Positions 1 to 18,955 are shown, counted from the stretch's first letter. The stretch is 64,000 nucleotides of DNA from Escherichia coli (GCF_011045215.1 NZ_CP049201.1); one strand, 5' to 3'. The notes: a model not told the origin generated them from the sequence alone. Program-made: numbers and translations.

Positions 1-147
1 GGCGTGGCCCGGGGCATCACGCTTCATACCGCGGTGAAGGACGACGACAGCGAGGTGGCCGGGATTATCCGCGCACTGCTTGCTGGTGAGGAAAACGCCA
101 GGCTGCGTGCAGCCCACTGGTTACATGAGAGGGGGCTGAAAGTATGA
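1..147 (+). CDS. 3' end of an upstream phage late-region ORF (partial, function unknown)
   Basis: Frame 1 is open from the window edge to TGA at 145-147, overlapping the ATG of the next gene (ATGA coupling). No family recognised from the 48 visible residues. Confidence 0.35.
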   Translation, partial: GVARGITLHTAVKDDDSEVAGIIRALLAGEENARLRAAHWLHERGLKV

Positions 148-521
148 AGCTGATTCTGCCTTTTCCACCCAGCGTGAACACCTACTGGCGACACCCCAAC
201 AAAGGGGCATTTGCTGGTAAGAGCCTGATAAGCGCGGCGGGGCGAAAATTCCAGAGTGCGGCGTGCACAGCAATAGTTGAGCAGTTACGTCGTCTGCCGA
301 AACCAACGTCGGCACCTGCTTCAGTGGAGATCGTGTTGTTTCCTCCGGATAACCGGATCCGCGATCTGGACAACTATAACAAGGCGCTGTTTGACGCCCT
401 GACCCACGCGGGTGTGTGGGAAGACGACAGCCAGGTGAAAAGAATGCTGGTGGAGTGGGGACCGGTTATCCCGGAAACGGATGTTGCGGGTTGTTGTTCT
501 GCGGGTTCTGTTCTTCGTTGA
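144..521 (+). CDS. RusA-family Holliday-junction resolvase-like protein
   Basis: 125-aa ORF with motifs LPFPPSVNTYWRH and RIRDLDNYNKALFDALTHAGVWEDDSQV, matching the RusA signature ([41 protein letters not shown]) including the acidic catalytic residues. Confidence 0.6.
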   Translation: MKLILPFPPSVNTYWRHPNKGAFAGKSLISAAGRKFQSAACTAIVEQLRRLPKPTSAPASVEIVLFPPDNRIRDLDNYNKALFDALTHAGVWEDDSQVKRMLVEWGPVIPETDVAGCCSAGSVLR

Positions 522-689
522 CATGAGGTTGCCCCGTATTCAGTTTCGCTGATTTGTATTGTCTGAAGTTGTTTTTACGTTAAGTTGATGCAGATCAATT
601 AATACGATACCTGCGTCATAATTGATTATTTGACGTGGTTTGATGGCGTAGATGCACGTTGTGACATGTAGATGATAATTATTATCATT

Positions 690-905
690 TTGCGGGTCCT
701 TTCCGGCGATCCGACATGTTACGGGGCGGCGACCTCGCGGGTTTTCGCTATTTATGAAAATTTTCCGGTTTAAGGCGTTTCCGTTCTTCTTCGTCGTAAC
801 TTAATGTTTTTATTTAAAATACCCCCTGAAAAGAAAGGAAACGACAGGTGCTGAAAGCGAGCTTTTTGGCCTCTGTCGTTTCCTTTCTCTGTTTTTGGCC
901 GTGGA
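690..905 (+). other. Lambda-type cos site (cosQ-cosN-cosB); cosN 12-nt cohesive-end sequence GGGCGGCGACCT at about 724-735
   Basis: ...gggtcctttccggcgatccgacatgttacg/gggcggcgacctcgcgggttttcgctatttatgaaaattttccggtttaaggcgtttccg... is near-identical to the joined right and left ends of phage lambda as I recall them, and sits immediately upstream of Nu1. Confidence 0.85.
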
Positions 906-912
906 ATGAACA

Positions 913-1458
913 ATGGAAGTCAACAAAAAGCAGCTGGCTGACATTTTCGGTGCGAGTATCCGTACCATTCAGAACTGGCAGGAACAGGGAATGCCCGTTC
1001 TGCGAGGCGGTGGCAAGGGTAATGAGGTGCTTTATGACTCTGCCGCCGTCATAAAATGGTATGCCGAAAGGGATGCTGAAATTGAGAACGAAAAGCTGCG
1101 CCGGGAGGTTGAAGAACTGCGGCAGGCCAGCGAGACAGATCTCCAGCCAGGGACTATTGAGTACGAACGCCATCGACTTACGCGTGCGCAGGCCGACGCA
1201 CAGGAGCTGAAAAATGCCAGAGACTCCGCTGAAGTGGTGGAAACCGCATTCTGTACTTTCGTGCTGTCGCGGATCGCAGGTGAAATTGCCAGTATTCTCG
1301 ACGGGATCCCCCTGTCGGTGCAGCGGCGTTTTCCGGAACTGGAAAACCGACATGTTGATTTCCTGAAACGGGATATCATCAAAGCCATGAACAAAGCAGC
1401 CGCGCTGGATGAACTGATACCGGGGTTGCTGAGTGAATATATCGAACAGTCAGGTTAA
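913..1458 (+). CDS. nohD: Phage terminase small subunit Nu1 (DNA-packaging protein)
   Basis: 181-aa product MEVNKKQLADIFGASIRTIQNWQEQGMPVLRGGGKGNEVLYDSAAVIKWY... is essentially identical to lambda Nu1; its 3' end overlaps the start of gene A as in lambda. Confidence 0.95.
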   Translation: MEVNKKQLADIFGASIRTIQNWQEQGMPVLRGGGKGNEVLYDSAAVIKWYAERDAEIENEKLRREVEELRQASETDLQPGTIEYERHRLTRAQADAQELKNARDSAEVVETAFCTFVLSRIAGEIASILDGIPLSVQRRFPELENRHVDFLKRDIIKAMNKAAALDELIPGLLSEYIEQSG

Positions 1459-2452
1459 CAGGCTGCGGCATTTTGTCCGCGCCGGGCTTCGCTCACTGTT
1501 CAGGCCGGAGCCACAGACCGCCGTTGAATGGGCGGATGCCAATTACTATCTCCCAAAAGAATCCGCATACCAGGAAGGGCGCTGGGAAACACTGCCCTTT
1601 CAGAGGGCCATCATGAATGCGATGGGCAGTGACTACATCCGCGAGGTGAATGTGGTGAAGTCTGCCCGTGTTGGTTATTCCAAAATGCTGCTGGGTGTTT
1701 ATGCCTACTTCATAGAGCATAAGCAGCGCAATACCCTTATCTGGTTGCCGACGGATGGTGATGCCGAGAACTTTATGAAAACCCACGTTGAGCCGACTAT
1801 TCGTGATATTCCGTCGCTGCTGGCGCTGGCCCCGTGGTATGGCAAAAAGCACCGGGATAACACGCTCACCATGAAGCGTTTCACCAATGGGCGTGGCTTC
1901 TGGTGCCTGGGCGGTAAAGCGGCAAAAAACTACCGTGAAAAGTCAGTGGATGTGGCGGGTTATGATGAACTTGCTGCCTTTGATGAGGATATTGAACAGG
2001 AAGGCTCTCCGACGTTCCTGGGCGATAAGCGTATTGAAGGCTCGGTCTGGCCAAAGTCCATCCGTGGCTCCACGCCCAAAGTGAGAGGCACCTGCCAGAT
2101 TGAGCGTGCAGCCAGTGAATCCCCGCATTTTATGCGTTTTCATGTTGCCTGCCCGCATTGCGGGGAGGAGCAGTATCTTAAATTTGGCGACAAAGAGACG
2201 CCGTTTGGCCTCAAATGGACGCCGGATGACCCCTCCAGCGTGTTTTATCTCTGCGAGCATAATGCCTGCGTCATCCGCCAGCAGGAGCTGGACTTTACTG
2301 ATGCCCGTTATATCTGCGAAAAGACCGGGATCTGGAGGGGAATACCAACATCGCCGGTGTCACGGTGGTGTTCCGGGCAGGTGAACAGGAGCAGACACCG
2401 CCGGAGGGATTTGAATCCTCCGGATCCGAGACGGTGCTGGGTACGGAAGTGA
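1433..2452 (+). pseudogene. Terminase large subunit (lambda gpA) N-terminal ~300 codons, truncated; A-like sequence ends near 2335 and the ORF runs on out of frame to 2452
   Basis: MNISNSQVNRLRHFVRAGLRSLFRPEPQTAVEWADANYYLPKESAYQEGRWETLPFQRAIMNAMGSDYIREV...CEKTGIW matches lambda gpA, then continues as unrelated residues RGIPTSPVSRW... gpA is ~640 aa in lambda. Confidence 0.85.
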
Positions 2453-2823
2453 AATACGACACGCCGATCACCCGGACCATCACGTCTGCAAACATCGACC
2501 GTCTGCGCTTTACCTTCGGTGTGCAGGCACTGGTGGAAACCACCTCAAAGGGGGACCGGAATCCATCGGAAGTCCGCCTGCTGGTTCAGATACAACGTAA
2601 CGGTGGCTGGGTGACGGAAAAAGACATCACCATTAAGGGCAAAACCACCTCGCAGTATCTGACCTCGGTGGTGGTGGGTAACCTGCCGCCGCGCCCGTTT
2701 AATATCCGGATGCGCAGGATGACGCCGGACAGCACCACAGACCAGCTGCAGAACAAAACGCTCTGGTCGTCATACACCGAAATCATCGATGTGAAACAGT
2801 GCTACCTTCTGCCCGTAAGGTGA
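2338..2823 (+). pseudogene. Internal fragment (~160 codons) of lambda-like tail-tip/host-specificity gene J, with no N-terminus or C-terminus
   Basis: Translation ...VVFRAGEQEQTPPEGFESSGSETVLGTEVKYDTPITRTITSANIDRLRFTFGVQALVETTSKGDRNPSEVRLLVQIQRNGGWVTEKDITIKGKTTSQY...IIDVKQCY matches the middle of lambda J. It is in a different frame from the truncated A and ends in unrelated sequence. Confidence 0.8.
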
Positions 2824-4004
2824 ATGGTAAGGCGCTTTCAGCGGATATAACACTGACGCCGAAAGATATTGGTACGCTTAACTCAACAACAATGTCATTC
2901 AGCGGTGGTGCTGGTTGGTTCAAATTAGCAACGGTAACCATGCCACAGGCGAGTTCTGTTGTTTCAATTACGTTGATTGGTGGAGCTGGATTTAACGTGG
3001 GGTCACCTCAACAGGCAGGTATATCTGAACTTGTTTTGCGTGCAGGTAATGGTAATCCGAAGGGGATTACTGGTGCTTTATGGCAGCGCACATCGACAGG
3101 GTTTACAAATTTTGCCTGGGTCAATACATCTGGTGATACTTACGATATTTACGTTGCAATCGGAAATTATGCGACTGGTGTAAATATTCAATGGGATTAT
3201 ACCAGTAATGCCAGCGTGACGATTCATACGTCACCAGCATATTCTGCTAATAAGCCGGAAGGGTTAACGGACGGTACAGTTTATTCACTCTATACGCCAT
3301 CAGAACAGTTTTATCCGCCTGGCGCACCAATCCCGTGGCCATCAGATACCGTTCCGTCTGGCTATGCCCTGATGCAGGGGCAGACTTTTGACAAATCTGC
3401 CTACCCGAAACTTGCAGTCGCTTATCCGTCAGGCGTGATCCCTGATATGCGTGGCTGGACGATTAAGGGCAAGCCCGCCAGTGGTCGTGCCGTATTGTCT
3501 CAGGAACAGGACGGCATTAAATCGCATACCCACAGCGCCAGCGCATCCAGTACGGATTTGGGTACGAAAACCACATCGTCGTTTGATTACGGAACCAAAT
3601 CCACGAATAACACCGGGGCGCATACCCATAGTATTAGCGGGACTGCAAATAGTGCCGGTGCGCACCAACACAAGAGTTCCGGTGCATTTGGTGGCACGAA
3701 CACGAGCATTTTTCCTAATGGTTATACTGCGATTTCAAATCCAAGCGCGGGGATTATGAGCACAACAAGCGGTACTGGCCAGACTCGTAATGCAGGGAAG
3801 ACATCATCAGATGGTGCTCATACCCACTCACTGTCCGGCACTGCTGCAAGCGCAGGTGCACACGCACATACTGTCGGTATTGGTGCTCATACGCACTCCG
3901 TTGCGATTGGTTCACATGGACACACCATCACCGTTAACGCTGCTGGTAACGCGGAAAACACCGTCAAAAACATCGCATTTAACTATATTGTGAGGCTTGC
4001 ATAA
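2799..4004 (+). CDS. Side tail fibre protein, C-terminal receptor-binding portion with His-box repeats (probably a 5'-truncated remnant using an internal GTG)
   Basis: 401-aa ORF with repeated GAHTHS/GAHQH/GAHAHT/GSHGHT motifs and a C-terminal ...[22 protein letters not shown] typical of lambdoid Stf and T4 gp37-like fibre tips. Its stop overlaps the tfa start (TAATGG). The N-terminal tail-attachment region expected for Stf is absent. Confidence 0.65.
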
Positions 4005-4585
4005 TGGCATTCAGAATGAGTGAACAACCACGGACCATAAAAATTTATAATCTGCTGGCCGGAACTAATGAATTTATTGGTGAAGGTGACGCATATATTC
4101 CACCTCATACAGGTCTGCCAGCAAACAGTACCGATATTGCACCGCCAGATATTCCGGCAGGCTTCGTGGCTGTTTTCAACAGTGATGAGGCATCGTGGCA
4201 TCTTGTTGAAGACCATCGGGGTAAAACGGTTTATGACGTGGCTTCCGGCGACGCGTTATTTATTTCTGAACTCGGCTTATTACCGGAAAATGTCACCTGG
4301 TTATCCCCGGAAGGGGAGTTTCAGAAGTGGAACGGCACAGCCTGGGTGAAAGATGCAGAAGCAGAAAAACTGTTCCGGATCCGGGAGGCGGAAGAAACAA
4401 AAAACAACCTGATGCAGGTAGCCAGTGAGCATATTGCGCCACTTCAGGATGCTGTAGATCTGGAAATCGCAACGGAGGAAGAAAACTCGTTGCTGGAAGC
4501 CTGGAAGAAGTATCGGGTGTTGCTGAACCGTGTTGATACATCAACTGCACCTGATATTGAGTGGCCTGTAATACCAGAAGTTTAA
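4004..4585 (+). CDS. Tail fibre assembly protein (Tfa)
   Basis: 193-aa ORF translationally coupled to stf; the C-terminus ...[49 protein letters not shown] is the conserved Tfa motif. Confidence 0.85.
4431..4543 (+). repeat. Direct repeat copy 1: 3' segment of tfa (about 88% identical to 8260-8373)
   Basis: atattgcgccacttcaggatgctgtagatctggaaatcgcaacggaggaagaaaactcgttgctggaagcctggaagaagtatcgggtg... is nearly repeated at 8260-8373. Confidence 0.8.
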
Positions 4586-4589
4586 AATA

Positions 4590-4617
4590 AAAGCCCGCTT
4601 AAAATATCGCGGGCTTC
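4590..4617 (-). terminator. Hairpin (aaagcccgc...gcgggcttt) with a T-run on the minus strand; candidate terminator for the minus-strand catalase operon and possibly for tfa
   Basis: Inverted repeat aagcccgc / gcgggctt between convergent tfa and catalase genes; the minus-strand reading gives the stem followed by TTATTTTA. Confidence 0.5.
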
Positions 4618-4704
4618 GAAATATAAATGTATTTTCAGAGGCTAGAGCTTAGGATATCTCAGCGGCAATTAACTTATGAGGGATAGCTAAATACCAGAAG
4701 ATAA

Positions 4705-5595
4705 TTAGTTTTTACTATTTATCTTTGTTTGTGGTTCTCCTTCAGCAAGCTCAGCGCCAGTGACAGGATTGATGTCTTCATGGGATTTCAACCTTGTTGC
4801 CATAGCTTTTATCATAGCTTCTTGCTTGGTCGAAAGATTTATCGAGGCCTTCCCATCCCCACCGTCAACCGCTGGAACTGGATCGGAAATATAGTCAAAG
4901 TTTTCATCACTGTTCCAACTACCTCTGACGTCTTCACCTTCTGACATGTTGTAATATACGTTTTTGTATTTCTCAATTGGTGGTAATTTTCCTGGTGGAA
5001 AGGTGTTGCGAATTGAATGTAATGCTTTTTCAAATGAAAGCATGTGTGCTGCTTCCCTGGTCATTAAAAATGCCAGAGTGTCTTTTACTCCAGGATCATC
5101 AGTAACATTAATGAGACGTTCGTAAATGATCTTTGCCCGAGCTTCAGCTGCAATATTTGAACGAAGATCGGCCGTGACTTCGCCAATAGTATCAACATAA
5201 GCTGCAGTCCAGGGTACTCCAGCTGAATTAGTTAATGCTGGGCCTCCTCCGTAGAGGAGAGAAGTTATATGGCTGTCATTGCCATTTTGAGTTAAGGAAC
5301 GGTAAAGCTCAGCTTCATTCTCAGTTCCTTCAGCAAGTGCTCCTTTTGCACCTTTGTTGAGCATACCAACAAGAGAACCAATAATTTCGAGATGACTTAG
5401 TTCTTCTGTTGCTATGTCCATCAGCATATCCCTTCGGCCTGCATCTTCATCACTTAAGCCTTGAGTGAAGTATCGGCATGCTGCTGCAAGCTCACCCTGT
5501 GGCCCGCCGAATTGTTCTAAAAGTAGATTAGCCAAGCCTGGGTTTGGCTCACTTACACGTACTGTATATTGAAGTTTTTTCACGTGTCTAAACAT
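4705..5595 (-). CDS. Manganese (non-haem) catalase, KatN-like
   Basis: 296-aa product with ferritin-like Mn-catalase architecture (…EELSHLEIIGSLV…, …TREAAHMLSFEKAL…). It is last in a yciG-yciF-yciE-catalase gene order, as in the Salmonella yciGFE-katN operon. Confidence 0.8.
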   Translation of the reverse strand: MFRHVKKLQYTVRVSEPNPGLANLLLEQFGGPQGELAAACRYFTQGLSDEDAGRRDMLMDIATEELSHLEIIGSLVGMLNKGAKGALAEGTENEAELYRSLTQNGNDSHITSLLYGGGPALTNSAGVPWTAAYVDTIGEVTADLRSNIAAEARAKIIYERLINVTDDPGVKDTLAFLMTREAAHMLSFEKALHSIRNTFPPGKLPPIEKYKNVYYNMSEGEDVRGSWNSDENFDYISDPVPAVDGGDGKASINLSTKQEAMIKAMATRLKSHEDINPVTGAELAEGEPQTKINSKN

Positions 5596-5613
5596 AATGC
5601 CTCCTCAAAAGAA

Positions 5614-6120
5614 TTATTTTTTGGCTTCAACTCCATCAATTTCAGATCTGACCATGAATTGCTCAGTGGTGTCAGGAATATGGTTAAGAAGCCATTCAGC
5701 CATTTGTTTTTCTTCATTAAGAATTGCTTCAATAATGGGTACTGAAGCTGTATCACCCGCATTTTTGGCTGCTGCGAGAAGAGATGTGTAGCACGCAATT
5801 TCAAATTGTTCGAAAACATAGCCACTGATCGAACCTTTGACAATTTCATCAGATGGAAAAATTCCACCAATGGATTGCCCAAACGCGGCCATTTTACTCA
5901 TAGAGTCTTTAATGACAGAGCGCGAAATATTATTACGATCAAGTATGCTTTCAAGCTGTGAAAGCTGGTTCTTTGTTTCGCTAATGTGCTGCTCAATTCT
6001 GGAACGTAACTCTGGATAGTTTTCTATCCGGCTGGCCATAGACTCAAGCATTTTTTCAGCTTGTTTCTCCATCGCATGTGCATCACGAAGCCAGTCATGG
6101 TAATGTTCAATTCTATTCAT
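5614..6120 (-). CDS. YciE-like ferritin-like/DUF892 stress protein
   Basis: 168-aa product MNRIEHYHDWLRDAHAMEKQAEKMLESMASRIENYPELR... closely resembles E. coli YciE. Confidence 0.85.
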   Translation of the reverse strand: MNRIEHYHDWLRDAHAMEKQAEKMLESMASRIENYPELRSRIEQHISETKNQLSQLESILDRNNISRSVIKDSMSKMAAFGQSIGGIFPSDEIVKGSISGYVFEQFEIACYTSLLAAAKNAGDTASVPIIEAILNEEKQMAEWLLNHIPDTTEQFMVRSEIDGVEAKK

Positions 6121-6156
6121 AATCTGTTTATCCTAAAAGAAATTGAAGTCTATAGT

Positions 6157-6663
6157 TCAGGAGTTATCCTGAGCTTTTTTATTAACGTTATTAAATGCCA
6201 GGTCTGTTAATTTGACATCAGTAGCTTTTTCCTCTTCCAGTGTTTCTTTCAGGAGTTTAGCCGCTTTTTTATATCCTAATTGCTCAGCGAGTGTTACCAA
6301 AGTGCCATAACTGGCAATTTCATAGTGCTCTACTTTTTGTGCTGCAGCAATCAATGCAGCATCACGTACTTCATTTTTATCAGTGCTTTCAATTACCTCA
6401 TTCGCCTCTTCGATAAGTCCTTCCATTGCGGCACACTTAATTCTTTTCAATTTAAGACCATCTTCAGAATCAACAATCTGATCGATGCGTTCAATTTGAC
6501 CATGTGTCTCATCAAGATGTGACTGAAAAGCAGCGGTTAATTTATCACTATATGCAGAGCGACTAAGTTTAGACAGTGCCTTTGTTAGTTGTTTCTCAGC
6601 GCTGTATGTATCCGATAATAAGTGGATGAAGATATCTTCAACAGATTTAATTTGCATAATCAC
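6157..6663 (-). CDS. YciF-like DUF892 stress protein
   Basis: 168-aa product ...VEDIFIHLLSDTYSAEKQLTKAL...EVRDAALIAAAQKVEHYEIASYGTL... closely resembles E. coli YciF. Confidence 0.85.
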   Translation of the reverse strand: MIMQIKSVEDIFIHLLSDTYSAEKQLTKALSKLSRSAYSDKLTAAFQSHLDETHGQIERIDQIVDSEDGLKLKRIKCAAMEGLIEEANEVIESTDKNEVRDAALIAAAQKVEHYEIASYGTLVTLAEQLGYKKAAKLLKETLEEEKATDVKLTDLAFNNVNKKAQDNS

Positions 6664-6735
6664 TCCAGAGTTTTCACTGCGAGCCCGTAGGCTCGCAGTT
6701 AGCTTCAGTTATTCACGAATGTAGGGGATGATAAA

Positions 6736-6918
6736 TTAAGAGTCAGATTTACGGCCGCCACCATGGCTATTCTGACCACCTTTTTTCCCTGCTTCTGATG
6801 CTCTTTGTGGATCGTTTTTAAAATTACCGCCACTATGTTGGCCGCCTTTACGACCAGCGTCAGAAGCTTTTTGTCGATCTTCAGCGAAATTACCTGCACC
6901 GCCACGATGTTCGGTCAT
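6736..6918 (-). CDS. YciG-like KGG-repeat general stress protein
   Basis: 60-aa product MTEHRGGAGNFAEDRQKASDAGRKGGQHSGGNFKNDPQRASEAGKKGGQ... with KGG repeats, resembling YciG/YmdF; first gene of the four-gene minus-strand operon. Confidence 0.8.
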   Translation of the reverse strand: MTEHRGGAGNFAEDRQKASDAGRKGGQHSGGNFKNDPQRASEAGKKGGQNSHGGGRKSDS

Positions 6919-7383
6919 ATCATTTCTCCTCTGATTTTCAAATTGTAAATAACATGTGCCTTGTCAGCACCCAATTAACTCTAGTAACAAATAAGAAAGT
7001 GTCAAATAACAGATTGGTATGCGCATTTTGATGTGAGAAATAATAATTGTAAAAATGTGCGCTCAGTGAGTATAATCTATTGATATCTTAGTGATTAACG
7101 GAAAATTTAGGTTGTAACTCAAAAGATTAATAAACCTAAATTTACATTTCTATATTATTTGGTGTGCCTGTTGTTGTTTTTCTCAATAAGAATACTCTGT
7201 AAAATAATTCAATCGTAAGATGGTTGTTATTCATATTTTTTTGAGATAGTTCCTAATAGGGTCCATCCCTTGAATAAATAATTGTTTTAAAATTTCGTCT
7301 AAAGAACTAATTACAAGAAAATTTATATAGTCCAAGGAATCATGATTGTACTTAACCATAAGATTTGAGCGTAAAAATTAATG

Positions 7384-7414
7384 CGCAGCACGTCGTATGC
7401 AAGAACGTGCTGCG
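7384..7414 (-). terminator. Rho-independent terminator candidate downstream of the methyltransferase gene
   Basis: 9-bp perfect stem cgcagcacg / cgtgctgcg; on the minus strand it is followed by ATTAATTTTT. Confidence 0.55.
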
Positions 7415-7422
7415 GTTGGATG

Positions 7423-8091
7423 CTATTTTTTCCCTGAAGCGGAAAACATTACTACAGTACCTTGAACCTTGGTTTTAACATTCTCGAAATGCTCTGAGAG
7501 TATATGTGTTAAGCCTTCTTCGGAATCTCTTGTGTTTGAAAAGATGCCTTTCTGATTGTAAATGCGCATCAGTTTTTGACCGAAGCGATTGTGCACAATT
7601 CCATCGCCAAGAATTGTGGCTCCGTATAGAGTTCCATCGCCAGTTAAGGCCTGCGCCGCATTGCGTATTACACAGCTTTTTGTAGATATATTTCCAGGCA
7701 GGCAGTGAAGAAGGTAAAACATGGAAATGGAATCAAATTGACCATGTAACGCCGCGGGATAAGGTTCAAAAACATCATGGCTAATTTTATGTTTAATTTT
7801 TGATTCCCCAGCCCTTGTAGATGCCGCGTTCAGGCTAGCTTCGTTCAAATCCATTAAAGATATCAGACTACTCTCAGGTACGTGAGTAAGGTAAAACCCA
7901 GTTCCAACACCAATATCCAGATGGTTGTTACCTAAATGTTCCAGAAAGTGTGGAAGAAGGTGTTCCTTTGTAGGACATCCCCATGCAAGCCGATTTGATA
8001 CTCCCAAAACCCACCAGTCATAAAGCTTTAGGGTAAGTGGTGTGTAAATTTTAGCCCCATCATCTGTGTTTTTTTTCATTAATTTCACCAT
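7423..8091 (-). CDS. ybcY: Class I SAM-dependent methyltransferase (YbcY-like), apparently intact
   Basis: 222-aa ORF with the SAM-binding motif LDIGVGTGFY and a Rossmann-type methyltransferase layout. It occupies the ybcY position of DLP12, between the tfa copies. Confidence 0.7.
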   Translation of the reverse strand: MVKLMKKNTDDGAKIYTPLTLKLYDWWVLGVSNRLAWGCPTKEHLLPHFLEHLGNNHLDIGVGTGFYLTHVPESSLISLMDLNEASLNAASTRAGESKIKHKISHDVFEPYPAALHGQFDSISMFYLLHCLPGNISTKSCVIRNAAQALTGDGTLYGATILGDGIVHNRFGQKLMRIYNQKGIFSNTRDSEEGLTHILSEHFENVKTKVQGTVVMFSASGKK

Positions 8092-8147
8092 GTTATAGTT
8101 TTATTTGTGAATTAAATCAATTATGGCAATGAATTACAAGGGGTTAA

Positions 8148-8453
8148 ATGCTGCCGCAGCATGGCGATATTGAAATAGCCTGGTATGCTTCAATACAGCA
8201 GGAGCCGAATGGCTGGAAGACCGTCACCACACAGTTCTACATCCAGGAATTCAGTGAGTATATTGCGCCACTGCAGGATGCTGTAGATCTGGAAATCGCA
8301 ACGGAGGAAGAAAGATCGTTGCTGGAGGCATGGAATAAATATCGGGTATTGTTGAATCGTGTTGATACATCAGTAGCTCTGGGTATGAAGCTGTTTGTAA
8401 CTCATGTTACAGTAACAGCCATTACTATCTCGAAGGTGCAAAATGTATATTGA
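8148..8453 (+). pseudogene. tfaX: Tail fibre assembly gene remnant (tfaX-like), carrying only part of the Tfa C-terminal domain
   Basis: 101-aa ORF with ...[38 protein letters not shown]... but no Tfa N-terminal half, and a divergent C-terminal tail. Confidence 0.7.
8260..8373 (+). repeat. Direct repeat copy 2: tfa 3' segment (pairs with 4431-4543)
   Basis: tattgcgccactgcaggatgctgtagatctggaaatcgcaacggaggaagaaagatcgttgctggaggcatggaataaatatcgggta... Confidence 0.8.
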
Positions 8454-8581
8454 TTTGATATTTTATAAATTTACTTCGAATCTGGCACGTCAACTTTTGA
8501 TTAAAGTAATATCAGTTTTCGGCGAAAAAAGGACCGTGTACATGAGACGATTTCATACAAGAATAACAAAAATATGAATAT

Positions 8582-8615
8582 GCTCCCAATGCAATATATG
8601 TTTTGCATTGGGAGC
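8582..8615 (-). terminator. Rho-independent terminator candidate for the peptidase gene
   Basis: 12-bp stem gctcccaatgca / tgcattgggagc; the minus-strand reading is followed by a T-rich run. Confidence 0.55.
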
Positions 8616-8636
8616 AAATAGCGGAATATTTTGAAA

Positions 8637-10121
8637 TTATTGTATTTCTGCTTCAGAATTTCCTGGGCAGTATATATTTTCTATTTTTTGTGGAGTGATC
8701 AGGTGATGTACAACTGCTTTATCTACACATAAATTAACTCCGGTGAGAGCTAATGTATGCCCATCACCATTTATTGTTAGTAACGGGCTGGAAAATTTCT
8801 CTGCCATCTTACGGGCATTAATCCAGGGCGTTGTTGGATCGTATTTGTGTGCTACAAACAGTAAACCAGAGGGCAGAACAGTATTTTTCAGGCGAGTTTT
8901 GTTCAGGTCGCTATGTATTGGCCATAATTCACAAAAATCAGGTGAATCGGAACGTCCATTGTCAAAGTTAATAGCCGGGAAGGCATTCGCAAGAGCCTCT
9001 TTTCGGAATTTTCGCTCTTCTGGTGTTAATTGCTCATCCCCCTGATCTACACAAAGGATTACCCCCGAAGCATCACTTGACTCTTCTGAGGCTATCGGAG
9101 CACTGAGCGCAGTTTCAATTTCATTACTGACAATCCCCTGAGAGAACTGGCGTATGGCAGTTGCAAGGGTTGGCCATGATGAACGCCATAGCAGAAGGTC
9201 TGTTGTTAATGATATGAGTTCATCTGAAGATATATTTTCTCCCTTACTGTCTAATAAAGGTTTGTGATGTAATTTTGATAATAGCTCATGGAACTGAGTT
9301 ATTGCCTTATCTCTGTCTGAAGAAAGCGGGCAACTTTTTGTACGCGCACACCAGGATGCAAAGCGATCAAACGTTTCCTGATAACTCTGTGCCTGTTTGA
9401 GTTGCCATGTGAAGTTGTTCTCCAGGTCATCGATATCGACGACTCCATCAAGAACGATAGATCTTACGTTGTAGGGAAAACGTTCTGCATATAAGGCTGC
9501 AATTTGAGTTCCATACGAATACGCCACGGCTGTCAGTTGTTTATCCCCCAAGGCTTGCCTAATACGATCAATATCGTATACAGCCTCGTTAGAGCCGATA
9601 TGGCGAATGACTTCGGCTCCGGTATTATGGATACAGGCATTAATTTTATTTAATACTTGTTGCTTTTCGGTTATGTTTTCCTGAGTCTCTGTATCTGATT
9701 GTCGGCAGTTTATTGTCGGAGTGGACTGTCCGACGCCTCGAGGATCAAATCCAATAATATCCCATGACTCACGAAGATTTGTGACTGGCCAGTCAAAGTT
9801 AATATAAGGATTTATGCCTGGCAACCCGGGACCACCACTTATTATCAGGATACTTCCTTTATGCTTGCTTTTTGCCGGCAATTTTGTCAACGCTAGTTTG
9901 ACTTGTGATTTTTTTTCATAAGAAGCATCTCCGCCTGTGTCTGTATATTTTAATGGAACAGACAAATAACCACATAGTAAGTCAGGAGACGGTTTTTCCT
10001 CACCAAACCAGTGGTTGAATTGACTGGCCATACAGGATTGCCACTGTATCTGCTGGGCAGATACGGTTACTGGTAGAAGTAACGTTAAAACAACTTTGAA
10101 ATGAGTAATTATTTTTCGCAT
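8637..10121 (-). CDS. Secreted alpha/beta-hydrolase, S33-type (tripeptidyl/prolyl aminopeptidase-like) peptidase
   Basis: 494-aa ORF with an N-terminal signal peptide (MRKIITHFKVVLTLLLPVTVSA), a GGPGLPG oxyanion-type motif and a nucleophile elbow VAYSYGTQ (G-x-S-x-G variant). Confidence 0.65.
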   Translation of the reverse strand: MRKIITHFKVVLTLLLPVTVSAQQIQWQSCMASQFNHWFGEEKPSPDLLCGYLSVPLKYTDTGGDASYEKKSQVKLALTKLPAKSKHKGSILIISGGPGLPGINPYINFDWPVTNLRESWDIIGFDPRGVGQSTPTINCRQSDTETQENITEKQQVLNKINACIHNTGAEVIRHIGSNEAVYDIDRIRQALGDKQLTAVAYSYGTQIAALYAERFPYNVRSIVLDGVVDIDDLENNFTWQLKQAQSYQETFDRFASWCARTKSCPLSSDRDKAITQFHELLSKLHHKPLLDSKGENISSDELISLTTDLLLWRSSWPTLATAIRQFSQGIVSNEIETALSAPIASEESSDASGVILCVDQGDEQLTPEERKFRKEALANAFPAINFDNGRSDSPDFCELWPIHSDLNKTRLKNTVLPSGLLFVAHKYDPTTPWINARKMAEKFSSPLLTINGDGHTLALTGVNLCVDKAVVHHLITPQKIENIYCPGNSEAEIQ

Positions 10122-10260
10122 TGTGTCTCTGAATATCGGAATAAAGATAAAATTTGAATATATTGAGGTCTTGTGTTGCGGTAAGAGATTACACGTTATG
10201 ACATAGGTTAAATGCTTACAAAATTAGTGGATATTGTCTACTTGTAACTGTAAACAAATT

Positions 10261-10287
10261 CCCCGGGGTTATACAATACCACCGGGG
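10261..10287 (-). terminator. Hairpin (ccccgggg...ccgggg) downstream of ompT; candidate terminator
   Basis: GC-rich inverted repeat about 20-45 nt past the ompT stop on the minus strand. Confidence 0.4.
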
Positions 10288-10307
10288 AGAAAATCTGGTT
10301 AACTTCG

Positions 10308-11261
10308 TTAAAAGGTGTACTTAAGACCAGCAGTAGTGATGAAGTTATAGTTTTCTATGCCTGCACCATTTTTGCTGTAGTCTGAAGTGTTATCATTGTG
10401 ATCATAAAGTGAAGTATTACCTTTTTTATTCGTAACCCGATTCCATGCGCCTTCAACATAAACTTTTGCGTTAGGTGTTACGTAATAACCTGCATTGACT
10501 GCAACAGAATAGTAATTTTGGTCTTTGACCTTACTGCGATAAGTGATTCTTTTTCCCGGGTCATAGTGTTCATCGTTATCAGATGATTCCACCCAGCCGC
10601 TGTATTTAAATGTGCCACCGAGTTCAAAATCTTCATAACGATAACTTCCAGTCAAGCCAATGTAGGGCATTTTAAAACGTTGTTTGTAGCCGATTGCTCT
10701 TTCTCCATTCGGGAAGGAGCCGATATCATCTCTGAATCCCTCCTCAGAACTGTAGATATAGGAACCACCTCTGGCTGTAAAGCTATAACGGCTTTCCTGA
10801 TATCCGGCCATGAGTCCCAGGCGGTAATTGGGTTCGTTGAGGAGCCAGCCTTTGATATTCAGATCAAATTCGTTGGCATAATTGAGTTGTGTATCAGGGT
10901 GCTTACTTTCATCTGTCCAGGTTCCGGGGTTACTGGAATCCATCCAGTCCTGATCGACCATATTGCCACCCCGGCTGCCGAGAGTAGTCCAGCCCGCAGC
11001 CCCAATAGATATCTGGGGCATCAAATCCCAATTAATTGCACCTTTAATAATTGCAGCGTTATTGAATTTCCAGTCGAGTTGACTGACTTTTCGGCCTCCT
11101 TCTTCAGCTAGATAAACGCGCTCTTTTGTTTTTCCGCTCAGAGTTCCAAGACTAATGTCCACATTTATGTTGTCAGGAGTAAACGATATAGTCTCGGTAG
11201 AAGCAAAAGAGCTGATCGCAATAGGGGTTGTCAGGACTATTCCCAGAAGTTTCGCCCGCAT
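10308..11261 (-). CDS. ompT: Outer-membrane protease VII (omptin)
   Basis: 317-aa product MRAKLLGIVLTTPIAISSFASTETISFTPDNINVDISLGTLSGKTKERVYLAEEGG... matches OmpT nearly residue for residue. Confidence 0.95.
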   Translation of the reverse strand: MRAKLLGIVLTTPIAISSFASTETISFTPDNINVDISLGTLSGKTKERVYLAEEGGRKVSQLDWKFNNAAIIKGAINWDLMPQISIGAAGWTTLGSRGGNMVDQDWMDSSNPGTWTDESKHPDTQLNYANEFDLNIKGWLLNEPNYRLGLMAGYQESRYSFTARGGSYIYSSEEGFRDDIGSFPNGERAIGYKQRFKMPYIGLTGSYRYEDFELGGTFKYSGWVESSDNDEHYDPGKRITYRSKVKDQNYYSVAVNAGYYVTPNAKVYVEGAWNRVTNKKGNTSLYDHNDNTSDYSKNGAGIENYNFITTAGLKYTF

Positions 11262-11684
11262 AAAAGTTCTCCATTCAATCGTTTTAATGATTGAATATGT
11301 ATTTTTTATATCTAACTTAATGAGTCAATTACATATTGCTCCACTGTTTATATTTTGTTTAGTATTGAATGATTATCACAATGCGCTATCTATTTTTGGT
11401 TTAATTATCTGTTATTGTTTCATATTGCGGTTTTACTGTGTGTTTTTTTTATGCTTTTGTGGTGCTTTTATCTATTTAAGTGCCATGCCTTTAGAGGCAT
11501 ATAAGCGAAAATAGCACGAGGTTTATCCTCAATTGCTATGTTTTTTAGTACAAAAAAGAGGGACAAAACTGAGACACATAAGGCCTCACAATGGCTTGCA
11601 AGGCTTTACATGTTTTGAGGTAGTGGGACGTGTGAGCGCAGAGATGGCGCGGTAAGTTGTTGACTTAAAATGTCGTTCTAGGAA

Positions 11685-11729
11685 CTTCTAAGTCGTGGGC
11701 CGCAGGTTCGAATCCTGCAGGGCGCGCCA
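11685..11729 (+). other. Prophage attR: duplicated 3' ~45 nt of tRNA-Arg (argU); a tRNA fragment, not a functional gene
   Basis: cttctaagtcgtgggccgcaggttcgaatcctgcagggcgcgcca is the 3' half of argU, with no matching 5' half or D-arm upstream. This is the expected right junction of an argU-integrated prophage. Confidence 0.85.
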
Positions 11730-11774
11730 TTTCTTCTTCATTTATGCCCGTCTTATCCGTTTCCGCTTTGCCCT

Positions 11775-12536
11775 TCACCACATCACTTTTTGTCGCTGTT
11801 TGGCGAGATAATTCAACGGTGTCAGGCCGTAAAACGCCTTAAAAACAGAGATAAAGTACGACGTGCTGCTATAGCCACATAATTGCGCCACCTGAGTGAT
11901 ATTTTTGTTATCCATCAATAACATCTGTACGGCGTAACGCATACGACACTCTGTGACAATCTGGCTATAGCTGGTATTTTCGTTTTTTAATTTCTTTTTG
12001 AGCAGGCTGGGGCTTAAACATAGCGAACTGGCGACAATTCGCAGATTCCAGTAATGCTGAATATCGCTTTGAATAATGCGGCAGACGCTGTCGCGGACGC
12101 TGCTGCGTAAGATATACATCAGTAGGGCAATAAACCGCGATTGCTCAAGAAAGTTAGACAATACGGTAAAAAGCAATGCGCGCGTCAACTCCGCTTCGCA
12201 GGGTTTGCTGGGTTGCTGCTTGCTGTGGTTGGCGGCTAGCCGGAACACTTCCGGTGTACGGCTATGACAAGCGATAACCGGGGTAGCCAGCCGCGACCAG
12301 GGCTTTACACAGGTTAAGTTCTTATTTAAAAACAACAGATAATCGTTGATGATGTTACGGTTGATGTGGGTGATTAATACGTGATTTAACGTTGAGAGTT
12401 CAATGACGTTATTGTTGCACGCGAAGGCGGCCAGGTAGTTTTTCGGAAGGGTAAACGTAGCATGGTTATTGACGCTTACCTCTACCTCTTTTTCGGTCAG
12501 GATCACCACGCAAGGTTCACTGCTGCTCAATTGCAT
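11775..12536 (-). CDS. envY: AraC-family transcriptional regulator EnvY (porin thermoregulation)
   Basis: 253-aa product MQLSSSEPCVVILTEKEVEVSVNNHATFTLPKNYLAAFACNNNVIELS... with a C-terminal AraC HTH. Confidence 0.9.
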   Translation of the reverse strand: MQLSSSEPCVVILTEKEVEVSVNNHATFTLPKNYLAAFACNNNVIELSTLNHVLITHINRNIINDYLLFLNKNLTCVKPWSRLATPVIACHSRTPEVFRLAANHSKQQPSKPCEAELTRALLFTVLSNFLEQSRFIALLMYILRSSVRDSVCRIIQSDIQHYWNLRIVASSLCLSPSLLKKKLKNENTSYSQIVTECRMRYAVQMLLMDNKNITQVAQLCGYSSTSYFISVFKAFYGLTPLNYLAKQRQKVMW

Positions 12537-12718
12537 TTCGCACTCCTCAGATATCAGAAACTCCGCTCAAAGGATCTATGCTTCCTGCATGAGTGATCGG
12601 CCCGTTCGCCGATAACGATCTTCTTTCTTTAGCATGCTTTTTAGCAATTAATCTTGATGGAATTCTGACGAGAGCGAAAGAGGTAAGCCAGGTCGTACCC
12701 GACTTACCTGGAGGAGAT

Positions 12719-13609
12719 TTAATACTCGAGAATGCCGTGCGCGACGGGCAAATAGCGCAGAGAGAAATAGAGAGTGTCTTTACCGCAAGAGGAACGTTTC
12801 GCTAACAGCGAGGCAATTTCTGCGTCCGGTTTCGGTTTCGCTGTAAAGGTTTTGCCTTTGCCGGCGACAAACAGTTCATAAACAATGCCGCTTGCTGGGG
12901 CGGAGCTTTGGCAATCGGCGCTGGCCTGTAGATAACGTTCACGCTGTTCAGCGGTAAGTTTATTCACGCCGCTGCCATCCTGTACCCAGACATTAACGCC
13001 GGTTGCTTTAACGTGTTCCAGCAGTTGGCGATAGCCATCGGGCGACATGTTTCCGGCGAAAAAACTACTGATATAAACCGGTTTTGCTGAAACATCGCTA
13101 ATCAGCCGCTGCGCGTTGTTTAACCATGTTAGCAAAGGCTGACGGGCGGCTTCGCTGCGCCAGTTCAGGTCGTCAATTTCCGCGCTGATGTACCAGCCAT
13201 CCGGCGTTACGCCAGGCGCGGCGCTCCATAATCTGGCTTGCTGGAGATCGGCAGCCAGCAGGCGATTAAGATAGCTTTCCAGCGCTGCGGACGACTGTTT
13301 CTGGTGCATAAAAAATTCCGGATCGGCGTTCAGCCCGACAATCAGCTTCAGGCCAGCCTGTTGCGCAGCTGCGGCCCGCTTAAACAATAACGTGCGCTGT
13401 TCTGGCTGGGTAAATGCATCGCCGTAACGGGTCCATTGCAAAACCAGGGTATCGAAGCCTTGCAAACGTAACTGACTCATCAGCCCCTGCCACTGGGTAT
13501 CGGTAACCTGACTATCACGGTTTTGTGGTTGCCAGATAATACCTTTCATCGCAAAGGAAAAAGGGCTGACCAAAAGCAGTGTCAGCAATACGAAAATGAA
13601 CTTACGCAT
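12719..13609 (-). CDS. ybcH: DUF4434-family periplasmic protein YbcH
   Basis: 296-aa product with signal peptide MRKFIFVLLTLLLVSPFSFA; matches YbcH. Confidence 0.85.
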   Translation of the reverse strand: MRKFIFVLLTLLLVSPFSFAMKGIIWQPQNRDSQVTDTQWQGLMSQLRLQGFDTLVLQWTRYGDAFTQPEQRTLLFKRAAAAQQAGLKLIVGLNADPEFFMHQKQSSAALESYLNRLLAADLQQARLWSAAPGVTPDGWYISAEIDDLNWRSEAARQPLLTWLNNAQRLISDVSAKPVYISSFFAGNMSPDGYRQLLEHVKATGVNVWVQDGSGVNKLTAEQRERYLQASADCQSSAPASGIVYELFVAGKGKTFTAKPKPDAEIASLLAKRSSCGKDTLYFSLRYLPVAHGILEY

Positions 13610-16582
13610 TTACCAGTGCACTCCAATGGTGAGAAACGCGTTGTTGCGCTCTCCGTTACGTTGATTAATCGCCTTAAAGGTATGTTGATACTCGACGCCG
13701 AGACTGACTTTGTGCGGCCAGGCGTCGTAGTGCGTCTCGCCGGTCCAGATATTCCAGCGGACCCCGACACCGCCAAGCTGCGCGCCCTGAGTGCCTTTAT
13801 CACGATAGCCGTTGTCCTGAACGTGAGCGTAAGGCTCAATAGTCTGTCCGTTAGCTACCTTCTGATGCCAGCTGACGCGATAATCTGCCGTCCACGCCTG
13901 AATATCCTGGCGGATATATTGCGCCGCATCGAGGTACAGGTTTTGGGCAAACCAGCCTGAACCGCTCGGGTGCCATTCGTCGCTGTATTTGCCGCCATTA
14001 AAGAATGAGGCGCTGGCGCGCAGCATGGTATCGGATGCGCCATTTTGCCCGTTCAGCGGCAACTGCTGTTCGACGGCGAGGAAAAAGATCTGATCGCGCA
14101 GCGGCTTCCAGCGTAGACCGGTGCCGGACATCGGATTTTTCACCGGCATCATCACCCCGTTTTCTCCGGTATCGGCAAAGACGCGGCTATAAACTGAAAG
14201 CAGGTCGCCTTCCAGCAGCATATTTCGTCCGATGCGGTATTCGGCTTCCAGTTGCCCGTAGCTACGATAGCTTTTCCCTGGCGCTGCGCCGCCGACATTA
14301 TTGTTAGCGGTACTCATTGCGCCGGAACGCAAGCCGATGGAAGAATCGAAACTGAACGTCCAGCGGCGACCGACCTCCTCATGCAAACGGCGGAAATTGA
14401 AGCGTTGCTGATTTTGTTCTGGCGTCAATGGGGTTATCAGCGCCTGATTATCAATGTCATCAATCACCAGCCGGGCGTAGTGCTGCGTCGCAGGCATGTC
14501 ATCCAGACGCTGGTTCACGTAGGCCAGTTGTCGGATCAGTGCCGGATCGTCCGGAAGCCCTTTTTGCGCCTGTTCGAGCATTTCCCGCGACTGTGCGATA
14601 TCACCGCTATCCCACAAGGCGTAACCAAGCGCTGCCTGGATGTTGCTATTATTCGGTTCCAGTTCCAGCGCGGCGCGCAAATCACTCACCGCGGCCGGGA
14701 CATTATGACGTTGGCGATAAATTGTCGCCCGCGCAACGTAAGCGTTGGCAGAAGGCGCAATATTGATTGAGCGCGTGAGATCGTTCAGTGCGAGTTCCGG
14801 CTGACCAGGAATGTAACGTTGCGCATGCAGCCACCAGTAGAGGGCATTGCTTCCCAGTCCACGTTGTTCTGCCTGTTGTAGCCAGCGATCGCGAGCCGCA
14901 CCATTTCCTGCCGCCTGGGCGGTATTGGCAGCAGCAAGCAGATCCTCATTGCTCATGTCGTGAAGACTGATTTTCTGCCAGGCCGCCAGTGCGGTGGCGT
15001 AGTCCTCAACCTGATACGCCTGATAGGCTACCGCACGATGTTGCCAGGCGTTCGGTTGTCGTTGTTCGGCCTGAAGCCATGCATACAACGCCACACCGGG
15101 TAGCGTGTCCCGATAACACTTTGCCAGACGGTTCCAGGCGGCGGCATCGTAGGAAGGCGACATATCGCCCAGCAAGCGAACTATTGCCGGGCAATTATCT
15201 GCAATACCCGGCAACTGACTTTGCCACTGACGTTGCTCCGCCAGCGGTAAGGGTTTCGATAAAATCGCCACCTTCGCCGGCGTTGCCAGGTAAGGATGAC
15301 TTTCCAGCAGAGACGCCAGTCGCGCCATTAAAGTCTGGCTGATACGCGCATCGCCCTGGAAAGGATAGCGTTGCAGCAATAAATCGGCAGCTTCCCGTGA
15401 CTGCTCGTTCTGCATCAGTTGCCAGGTTAGTTGATCCAGGCGGGTAAGATTTGCCGGTTCTTGCTGATACAGCAAGCGTGCCAGACGCAGAGCTTCAGCC
15501 TTGTTACGGGTCGCCACGCTGACAGCATAACGCTCCTCAAGCATTTCATTGGCGGGGAGGGTGGCGAGCAGTTTTTGCGCTGCGTCGTACTGACCTTCTT
15601 TTAACAGCACCGGTAGCGTCGCGCCAACAACATACTGGCGGTTATCGGCAAACTGCACCGTATAATTCGCCAATGCCTGAACGGGGTTGGCGCTGTATTT
15701 AGATAACAGATAGAGCCAACTTTTCTCTTGTGCGTCCGTGGTAAACAGCGGCTTATTTTCAATGAGATAATGCTGGAGGCGTGCTTTTTCGCCACGATAA
15801 GCCAGCGCGGTCGCGTAAGTAATATATGACTGAGGATCGGTGAAGATCCCCTGTGATTGCAGTGCCAGGATCCGATCGTCCAGCTGCCCGGCAAGAAGCA
15901 CGTCAAACCACTGACGGCGTTCTGCCGCGCTTAATGTGTTCTGCTGGCGTGCTTCATTGTATAGCGTATCTGCCTGGGACCATTGTTTCAGGTAGATTGC
16001 CCGTTGCAGCAGATCGGTTCGCAGCGTTTTTCCTTCCGGCGATGCAGCAAACGTCGCATCGTTCAGTTGCGCTCTGGCGACAGGTAACTGTGCCAGCCGC
16101 AGGGCATTCTGCCCGACTTCACTGCGACAACGCAGGGTCGGCGCAGCATCGCACGCTTTTTGCTGGGCAAGCAGTTCTTCAACAGTTGTAATGCTTTTCA
16201 CTTCAACCGGAATAGCCGCCAGACTGCGCTCAAGTCGGGCATCTCCTGGGTGACGTTTCAGTTGATCCTCAAGCAACAGCCGCGCCCGGTCATCATGACC
16301 AAAATGGCGATAGGCTTCCGCAAGGTATAAAGTCAGCGGAATATTATCCGGCACCTGCTGGTGTATATATTCAAATTCGCGGATGGCGGTTGCTTCGTCG
16401 TTATTTTTCTGTGCCTTCAGCGCCTTATCGAGACGGGGATAAATAACAAAATGGCGATAATCGCTCAGCCCCAGCTCTTCTGCGCTGGTGCCGATATTGT
16501 CTGCGAGTGCGCTGGTACTCAATAAAGACGTCAGCAGTAAACCAGACCATCCGATGACGCGATTAAGGTTATTCTCCTTCAT
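13610..16582 (-). CDS. nfrA: Bacteriophage N4 adsorption protein A (outer-membrane TPR protein)
   Basis: 990-aa product from MKENNLNRVIGWSGLLLTSLLSTSALA (the ORF track has an in-frame 7-codon upstream extension); TPR-rich with a C-terminal beta-barrel-like region. Confidence 0.9.
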   Translation of the reverse strand: MKENNLNRVIGWSGLLLTSLLSTSALADNIGTSAEELGLSDYRHFVIYPRLDKALKAQKNNDEATAIREFEYIHQQVPDNIPLTLYLAEAYRHFGHDDRARLLLEDQLKRHPGDARLERSLAAIPVEVKSITTVEELLAQQKACDAAPTLRCRSEVGQNALRLAQLPVARAQLNDATFAASPEGKTLRTDLLQRAIYLKQWSQADTLYNEARQQNTLSAAERRQWFDVLLAGQLDDRILALQSQGIFTDPQSYITYATALAYRGEKARLQHYLIENKPLFTTDAQEKSWLYLLSKYSANPVQALANYTVQFADNRQYVVGATLPVLLKEGQYDAAQKLLATLPANEMLEERYAVSVATRNKAEALRLARLLYQQEPANLTRLDQLTWQLMQNEQSREAADLLLQRYPFQGDARISQTLMARLASLLESHPYLATPAKVAILSKPLPLAEQRQWQSQLPGIADNCPAIVRLLGDMSPSYDAAAWNRLAKCYRDTLPGVALYAWLQAEQRQPNAWQHRAVAYQAYQVEDYATALAAWQKISLHDMSNEDLLAAANTAQAAGNGAARDRWLQQAEQRGLGSNALYWWLHAQRYIPGQPELALNDLTRSINIAPSANAYVARATIYRQRHNVPAAVSDLRAALELEPNNSNIQAALGYALWDSGDIAQSREMLEQAQKGLPDDPALIRQLAYVNQRLDDMPATQHYARLVIDDIDNQALITPLTPEQNQQRFNFRRLHEEVGRRWTFSFDSSIGLRSGAMSTANNNVGGAAPGKSYRSYGQLEAEYRIGRNMLLEGDLLSVYSRVFADTGENGVMMPVKNPMSGTGLRWKPLRDQIFFLAVEQQLPLNGQNGASDTMLRASASFFNGGKYSDEWHPSGSGWFAQNLYLDAAQYIRQDIQAWTADYRVSWHQKVANGQTIEPYAHVQDNGYRDKGTQGAQLGGVGVRWNIWTGETHYDAWPHKVSLGVEYQHTFKAINQRNGERNNAFLTIGVHW

Positions 16583-18806: not shown

Positions 18807-18955
18807 ACAAAAACCTTACATTAACGCTGGTTATGTTTAGGGTGGCGTATATTAAGGTTTTTTATGAATTGTGACAGCTTTTTACCATTAATAGGTATGA
18901 CTATTGCGGCACGTTATTTTTACACTGGTTATAAAAGTTGCCGTTTGCTGAAGGA

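Follow-up and report, generated by a model that had tools for sequence, protein, structure and literature searches.

Two direct copies of the 3' end of a tfa gene bracket a block of cargo genes in a prophage of Escherichia coli, and this locus raises the question of whether the repeats are a device for excising the cargo or the residue of an older event. The DNA analysed, called the window here, is one strand of 64,000 nucleotides from E. coli (GCF_011045215.1, NZ_CP049201.1). The left repeat (copy A) lies in an intact lambda-type tfa gene and the right repeat (copy B) in a tfa stub; a manganese (Mn) catalase operon and a methyltransferase gene are bracketed by them. The locus is the DLP12 locus, where a decayed DLP12-like lambdoid prophage ends in its accessory (moron) genes. 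We are fairly confident that copy B is the scar of a past replacement of a tail-fibre module, that the layout was inherited, and that the core shared by the two copies is a historical crossover point and no working excision device.

A single long direct repeat family was found by repeat search (4412-4571 and 8241-8400, 160 nt, 83% identity), and no further tfa-like copy was detected by blastn in the 64-kb window. With blastn, 4412-4543 and 8241-8372 were 88.6% identical over 132 bp. Alignment with MAFFT followed by direct counting gave a gap-free core in which 110 of 121 positions are identical (90.9%). The features concerned are the following.

4004-4585, + strand: intact lambda-type tfa gene, 193 amino acids (aa) (Pfam Caudo_TAP, E = 3e-44; 95.2% identity to lambda tfa).
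4423-4543, + strand: repeat copy A, the conserved core in the 3' third of tfa (110/121 against 8252-8372; blastn E = 1e-44; inside the Rfam IS009 match at 4347-4545).
4445-4484, + strand: perfect run shared with copy B, where it lies at 8274-8313 (40 bp, counted).
8148-8453, + strand: 101-aa open reading frame (ORF) with the tfa stub, equivalent of K-12 tfaX (Caudo_TAP profile 75-121 only; non-tfa leader, tfa core, non-tfa tail).
8252-8372, + strand: repeat copy B, an internal tfa fragment of about codons 140-180, truncated on both sides (MAFFT, counting, blastn).

The original prediction had described two direct tfa segments of about 113 bp (4431-4543 and 8260-8373), about 88% identical, which encode the same Tfa peptide and flank the catalase operon and the methyltransferase gene. 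This description was borne out: 103 of 113 positions are identical by direct counting (91.2%), both copies are in frame on the + strand, the quoted peptide, which includes [N/R]SLLEAW[K/N], is read in each, and the gene layout agrees. Ten codons differ between the copies, seven synonymously and three non-synonymously. The 40-bp run is the longest perfect one, and no other stretch of the repeats reaches the length that RecA pairing needs.

Copy A is the 3' third of a gene whose product matches Caudo_TAP (PF02413) over its full length (profile 1-131 of 131). The similarity to phage lambda tfa covers 4004-4568 and stops at 4568. The ORF containing copy B is a tfa fragment, because only positions 75-121 of the 131 in the profile were matched, short of a complete member of the family. 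No Tfa homologue of its leader (residues 1 to about 26) was found in 50,697 phage records, beyond the same stub, and past ...RVDTS the ORF continues in sequence unrelated to tfa. Equivalents of the stub are annotated by RefSeq/PGAP as pseudogenes missing the N-terminus. K-12-type loci have a stop codon within the ORF, phage 2G7b carries a 7-nt deletion that breaks it, and in O157 it is interrupted by ISEc8. The exact Tfa protein of the window is found under QIF13624.1 and QIF15813.1, and the stub ORF under QIF15819.1, all in one E. coli record; a second identical tfa is probably present in another prophage of the source genome. The top match to the tfa/stub region among RefSeq complete genomes was only 98.8%.

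Alleles were compared in nine genomes and phages. The A copies are 96.7-100% alike and the B copies 94-100% alike, with the exception of the K-12-type stub, which is 89% identical to copy B and 91% identical to copy A. Identity between A and B is 89-91% in every genome examined, so there is no ongoing homogenization of the two copies. That seven of the ten differing codons are synonymous fits a divergence as functional alleles before truncation. In the ST131 prophage, copy B continues to the natural tfa stop and the terminator hairpin; it must therefore once have formed the 3' portion of an ordinary tfa gene. The stub variants share one identical leader and their allele type switches inside the core, as follows.

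ST131 stub: core all B-type, then the natural tfa end and the terminator.
Stub of a 266-kb contig: core B on the left and tfaQ on the right, then pinQ-ydfK.
FDAARGOS_944 stub: core all A-type, right up to the leader, then the natural tfa end.
K-12 stub: mosaic core, then the appY flank.

An 89-aa stub variant was present on 347 contigs, one of them of 4.66 Mb. In experiments, stf-tfa DNA passes between lambda and the Rac and Qin prophages through relaxed homologous recombination, which depends mostly on Red-beta (PMC3945230, PMC2327257), at 88-96% identity and with perfect runs of 49-115 bp (PMC3945230). The allele switching seen here fits these experimental exchanges. Judging from the sequences compared, the conserved tfa core of about 120 bp has served as a homologous recombination joint between phages over evolutionary time. 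The GB089 stub is A-like at two left diagnostic sites and reaches 13 bp further left. It was considered as an A x B recombinant and rejected, because its upstream peptide, QFYVIQIASEH, represents yet another mosaic allele, the third, and no complete tfa adjoins the stub.

The following course of events is proposed; its order and the recombination enzymes are what we infer, next to the observed anatomy, distribution, junctions and allele grouping. The tail-fibre module of an earlier phage would have been replaced by an 'stf-tfa-methyltransferase' segment joining inside the resident tfa, and copy B would be the scar, a dead internal fragment of a different, older tfa allele. The hydrolase-ompT block would have been attached by a later junction at ...RVDTS|. 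The unit of tfa, ybcY-like methyltransferase and stub would then have been inherited vertically and have spread among lambdoid phages. The slot between the tfa ...EWP codons and the methyltransferase terminator may have been filled independently, with nothing, with the Mn-catalase/YciE/YciF/YciG-like operon or with pin-ydfK-ynfT. Intrachromosomal deletion between A and B would be possible and too rare to show in finished genomes. Successive layers of tfa stubs in GB089, 2G7b and ST131 are in line with such module replacement.

The distribution was surveyed in 5,426 complete E. coli genomes. The methyltransferase flank, the stub and the hydrolase flank occur together in 890 of them, and roughly three quarters of 4,369 matching records have at least the methyltransferase flank and the stub. 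The arrangement of tfa, methyltransferase and stub is also found in the isolated phages PhiR29_1, 2G7b, ev243 and Turner, and the same block occurs at other integration sites, namely icd, trp/ompW (ST131) and zinT. The order in phage 2G7b is fibre genes, a 75-bp A stub, methyltransferase, B stub, hydrolase, ompT and int. In the ST131 prophage at trp/ompW (L007, 638-7416), an invertible fibre segment is followed by an A stub, the methyltransferase, a B stub and a DUF4376 chaperone fragment. In GB089, another fibre gene and a DUF4376 chaperone stand right beside the stub, without a methyltransferase. The layout of tfa, ybcY-like methyltransferase and stub is ancient and widespread, being shared by K-12, thousands of E. 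coli genomes and isolated lambdoid phages. The invertible-type region of ST131 holds stf-tfa, an inverted tfa with a fibre tip and a truncated recombinase gene; together with the stubs and the chaperone fragment that come after it, this makes several layers of dead tail-fibre chaperone genes.

The cargo between the repeats has edges of its own. The features of the interval are the following.

4569-7383, unstranded: catalase block, a 2.8-kb insertion or replacement (junction alignment; blastn boundaries 4567-4569 and 7384).
4593-4614, unstranded: GC-rich hairpin GCCCGC...GCGGGC between the convergent tfa and catalase genes (seen in the sequence, repeat search).
4705-5595, - strand: Mn catalase gene (Pfam Mn_catalase, E = 9.6e-87; RefSeq homologue 'manganese catalase family protein').
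5614-6120, - strand: DUF892 ferritin-like protein of the YciE/YciF type (Pfam DUF892, E = 1.2e-50).
6157-6663, - strand: second DUF892 ferritin-like protein of the YciE/YciF type (Pfam DUF892, E = 3.1e-54).
6736-6918, - strand: KGG-repeat general stress protein, YciG-like, first gene of the catalase operon (Pfam KGG, E = 1.1e-16).
7384-7414, unstranded: hairpin GCAGCACGTCGTATGCAAGAACGTGCTGC adjoining the 3' end of the methyltransferase gene and bounding the cargo slot on the right (alignments).
7423-8091, - strand: class I S-adenosylmethionine-dependent methyltransferase, homologue of K-12 ybcY (Pfam Methyltransf_12/25/23/11; synteny with the K-12 DLP12 methyltransferase pseudogene).

In catalase-free genomes, 37 bp take the place of about 2.8 kb, with junctions at about 4568/4569, after the tfa ...EWP codons, where the similarity to lambda also stops, and at about 7383/7384, at the methyltransferase terminator hairpin. 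The catalase block with both junctions was found in 380 of the complete genomes, many of them O157:H7, and tfa directly abutting the methyltransferase, without catalase, in 2,191. In one genome, RM8082, the same slot between tfa and methyltransferase is occupied by pin-ydfK-ynfT. The methyltransferase and both tfa copies are kept in all these cargo states (catalase, none, pin-ydfK-ynfT), and the hairpin at 7384-7414 stands immediately after the natural tfa end in other genomes. Cargo-plus and cargo-minus variants had been predicted to arise from the repeats; both do exist, but their junctions do not lie at the repeats. The catalase operon is a separate, later and independent moron insertion into a recurrent slot at the tfa end. 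No record of the phage collection carries the operon of Mn catalase, two DUF892 proteins and KGG protein. The hairpin at 4593-4614 is probably a bidirectional terminator, to judge by its form and position, and a promoter-like site for the KGG gene and the catalase operon is located on the - strand at 7005-6978. The methyltransferase homologue of PhiR29_1 is annotated as 'YbcY'.

Two further observations concern this slot. The DLP12-locus prophage of RM8082 (L005, 4600-7628) has tfaQ and pinQ-ydfK-ynfT between tfa and methyltransferase, and its tfaQ has the same protein accession as the Qin tfaQ of strain MB06234; the cargo slot is thus occupied by an entire right-end module of Qin. In O157:H7 DEC4E (L008, 2621-3511), the catalase gene contains an internal stop and ISEc8 lies just past the stub.

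Several observations weigh against regarding copy B as a dead scar of an old exchange. Hybrid junctions, A on the left and B on the right, were found on seven distinct short contigs of low coverage from metagenomes or SRA; if genuine, they would mean that deletion or exchange at the core is still ongoing. In many genomes nothing interrupts the 101-aa stub ORF, so it might retain some function. Weak protein similarity to Tfa reaches about nine codons upstream of copy B, from about 8226, and the FDAARGOS_944 stub is A-type up to the leader, so that B does not begin abruptly on the left, as it would at an illegitimate joint. Finally, insertion and deletion through the core leave identical flanks, and the order of events is therefore not provable from sequence. 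A rather unlikely alternative is that the core of about 120 bp, the sequence matched by Rfam IS009, is a portable homology joint, through which lambdoid tail-fibre assembly genes gain and occasionally lose accessory cassettes such as the ybcY-type methyltransferase unit by single homologous crossovers. Tfa would then stay intact, a stub would remain, and the hybrids with tfaQ on the left and the stub on the right (carried by L024, L025 and L027-L031) would be genuine empty-site or exchange products and no errors of assembly.

The original prediction went further and proposed that the repeats are an active RecA substrate, excising the catalase operon and the methyltransferase gene and giving cargo-plus and cargo-minus subpopulations. 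Such a deletion is mechanistically possible, since the repeats are direct and the 40-bp run exceeds the minimal efficient processing segment (MEPS) of RecA, 31-34 bp (that of Red-beta is 23-27 bp; both are quoted in PMC3945230). The further outcome of an 'invert-duplicate' product was discarded, as direct repeats only delete or duplicate and cannot invert. The query for the deletion junction was a 592-bp in-silico chimera made of the 5' part of tfa, the core and the right flank of B, with a threshold of at least 80% coverage. A longer chimera of 1,172 bp was uninformative, its halves being joined across the 1,049-bp methyltransferase interval. The 592-bp junction was found in none of the 5,426 complete genomes (best coverage 64%), nor was the reciprocal A x B junction. 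An exact gapped pattern was also used, consisting of an A-specific left anchor, 96 nt and a B-specific right anchor; it matched no IMG/VR contig, against 13 for the parental stub. The same pattern matched three metagenome contigs, in which, from left to right, A-type sites give way to B-type sites within the 40-bp run. The recombinant form was absent from the finished genomes and seen only on the seven short contigs.

Five of these seven contigs, from five samples (ENA, Logan) and with a coverage of 1.4-3.3x, encode a 206-aa hybrid Tfa that is identical to the in-silico deletion product of RM8082. The hybrid protein was found in no NCBI isolate, and a collection of 15 billion proteins contained neither the in-silico deletion product of the window nor that of L002. 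The longest contig with the hybrid protein (L027) has the Qin prophage (DUF1441-gpA'-stfQ'-tfaQ) as its left arm, which runs into the DLP12-type hydrolase-ompT block. Qin occupies another place on the chromosome as a prophage of its own, and stfQ'-tfaQ precede pinQ-ydfK there in complete genomes. The hybrid in L025 (1-550) is fused to a Firmicute-like ABC transporter gene, which shows the assembly to be chimeric. The left arm of L024 is a prophage remnant that was found beyond the tRNA fragment in L014/L019. Given the Qin arm, the L025 chimera, the L024 remnant and the missing predicted products, the hybrids are read as assembly chimeras or exchanges: they are probably chimeras assembled through the shared 40-mer, at most exchanges between prophages, and not cargo excisions. 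Two variants mark the right arm of the hybrids: CGA, a derived state limited to the L002/L005 sublineage of stub-bearing loci, and GTC, which L002, L005 and L010 also have. These variants suggest that the hybrids are nested within those loci and are not ancestral to them, which favours deletion or artefact; flank identity alone does not settle their polarity between deletion and ancestral empty site. The reciprocal hybrid protein was tried as a control for assembly artefacts and failed, the P0016 and P0017 stubs being genuine alleles in isolates. In addition, RecA is poor on substrates with about 10% divergence and contributes little there (PMC3945230), catalase presence or absence uses other junctions, and the copies are not homogenized. 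An active RecA substrate is thus unlikely, and the original interpretation holds only in part.

A Campbell-type insertion was weighed at the same level and is likewise improbable. It supposes that a circle containing the tfa core, the natural tfa end, the terminator, the methyltransferase and the leader entered a resident tfa by a single homologous crossover. The core would have been duplicated, tfa left intact and a stub left behind, and the hybrids would represent the unoccupied or excised state; the A-left/B-right form is indeed the predicted empty site. In its favour, the tfa 3' end with the terminator hairpin stands as a direct repeat on both sides of the ST131 methyltransferase, and the sequence to the right of the stub is recipient-specific (pinQ-ydfK, natural tfa end or hydrolase block). 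However, what lies to the right of copy A varies from genome to genome, which leaves the cassette without a fixed left edge, and neither a circular form nor a mobilization function is present. The empty-site form is also lacking in the finished genomes, and the CGA and GTC variants suggest that the hybrids are nested within L002/L005-type loci.

A tandem duplication of the tfa 3' end in situ, followed by drift and by insertion of cargo between the copies, would account for their direct orientation and proximity. It was rejected as very improbable on allele grouping (B groups with B and A with A across genomes and phages, at a constant divergence of about 10%), on the codon differences (7 synonymous : 3 non-synonymous) and on the structure of B, which is truncated on both sides and has a foreign leader, and which in ST131 has its own natural tfa end. 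That the core is conserved for the Rfam small RNA IS009 (RF02111), and not for protein or recombination, is hardly credible: the model does match 4347-4545 at 227.6 bits, above its gathering score of 117, and 8171-8374 at 111.4 bits, below it, but the match is in frame inside tfa on the coding strand, its fold is ordinary (z = -0.82) and several model pairs are broken in copy B. The IS009 'family' seems to represent nothing but tfa coding sequence from the 3' part of the gene, so that Rfam IS009 matches in E. coli would simply be tfa 3' ends. An integrative element with attL and attR (attachment) sites was rejected; no integrase or recombinase is encoded in the bracketed interval, which codes only for the catalase, two DUF892 proteins, the KGG protein and the methyltransferase, and the repeats are 91% rather than near-identical. 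An invertible tail-fibre segment of the Gin/Pin/Cin type was also rejected; the repeats are direct and no Resolvase-domain ORF was found in window 4000-8700.

The surroundings of the repeats are those of a degraded prophage. The gene order is cosN, nu1, truncated terminase A, J fragment, stf C-terminal fragment, tfa, catalase operon, methyltransferase, stub, hydrolase and ompT-envY-ybcH-nfrA. An exact lambda cosN (GGGCGGCGACCT) is present at 724-735 and is followed by nu1. Terminase A is cut at about 2340, a 152-aa internal J fragment lies at 2365-2823, and stf is reduced to its C-terminal 401 codons. All head and tail genes have been lost from the prophage (window 724-4004), and the tfa gene of the window is therefore an orphan. 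The first gene beyond the stub is the following.

8637-10121, - strand: alpha/beta hydrolase, TAP-like (Pfam Abhydrolase_1, Abhydrolase_4), first gene of the hydrolase-ompT block, which is joined to the stub at 8372/8373.

This hydrolase is described as secreted-type. Hydrolase and ompT (window 8637-11261) also occupy the stretch from the tail-fibre region to int in isolated phage 2G7b (L009, 6382-10652) and in PhiR29_1, which argues that the ompT gene on the E. coli chromosome belongs to an accessory block of lambdoid phages. A tRNA T-arm-like sequence (GGGCCGCAGGTTCGAATCCTGCAGG) is located at 11697-11721, between ompT and envY, and is probably a pseudo-tRNA or att remnant at the prophage end; no tRNA gene was called by ARAGORN in window 1-20000. 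Past this point, L014 and L019 contain a further prophage remnant (X, a 5'-truncated tfa and a methyltransferase).

Beyond annotation, the finding matters little: what looks like a device for excision is, if the preferred reading holds, a scar of exchanged tail-fibre modules that has long been inherited and is annotated in K-12 as tfaX. The Mn-catalase stress operon of O157:H7 and other E. coli prophages is to be regarded as an independent insertion in a recurrent slot at the tfa end. Short-read metagenome contigs across the 40-bp run should not be called structural variants without read-level support.

The stubs resemble the products of the lambda x Rac/Qin stf/tfa exchanges (De Paepe et al., 2014, PMC3945230; Martinsohn et al., 2008, PMC2327257) in that they switch allele within the core of about 120 bp; those studies were experimental phage-by-prophage crosses, whereas only historical products are seen here. 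As in the invertible segments Mu G, P1 C and e14 P (Gin/Cin/Pin), tfa and fibre C-terminal sequence is duplicated beside tail-fibre genes, and pin-like recombinase genes lie nearby in some relatives, among them the ST131 prophage and RM8082. Unlike in those segments, the repeats of the window are direct and the interval contains neither an invertase nor an alternative fibre gene. The cargo operon has the gene set and order (KGG protein, two DUF892 proteins, Mn catalase) of the Salmonella yciGFE-katN stress operon; the window operon differs from it in being prophage cargo between tfa and methyltransferase.

The closest comparison is with K-12, where the right end of DLP12 reads nohD - A' - tfaD' - ybcY' - tfaX - appY - ompT - envY. 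The locus (ompT-envY-ybcH-nfrA) and the order of tfa, reverse-strand methyltransferase and N-terminally truncated stub are common to both, and the methyltransferase-to-stub flank has the same structure in K-12 MG1655 (94.8% over 286 bp, query 1-286). Unlike K-12, the window has intact tfa and methyltransferase genes, keeps a C-terminal fragment of stf and carries the 2.8-kb Mn-catalase operon between tfa and methyltransferase. Its stub is joined to the alpha/beta hydrolase gene, whereas that of K-12 is joined to appY and is a different mosaic allele with an internal stop. Only incidental mentions of tfaX and ybcY were found in the literature. The feature is already known in kind from the tfaD-ybcY-tfaX arrangement of K-12, and is an ordinary prophage mosaic scar.

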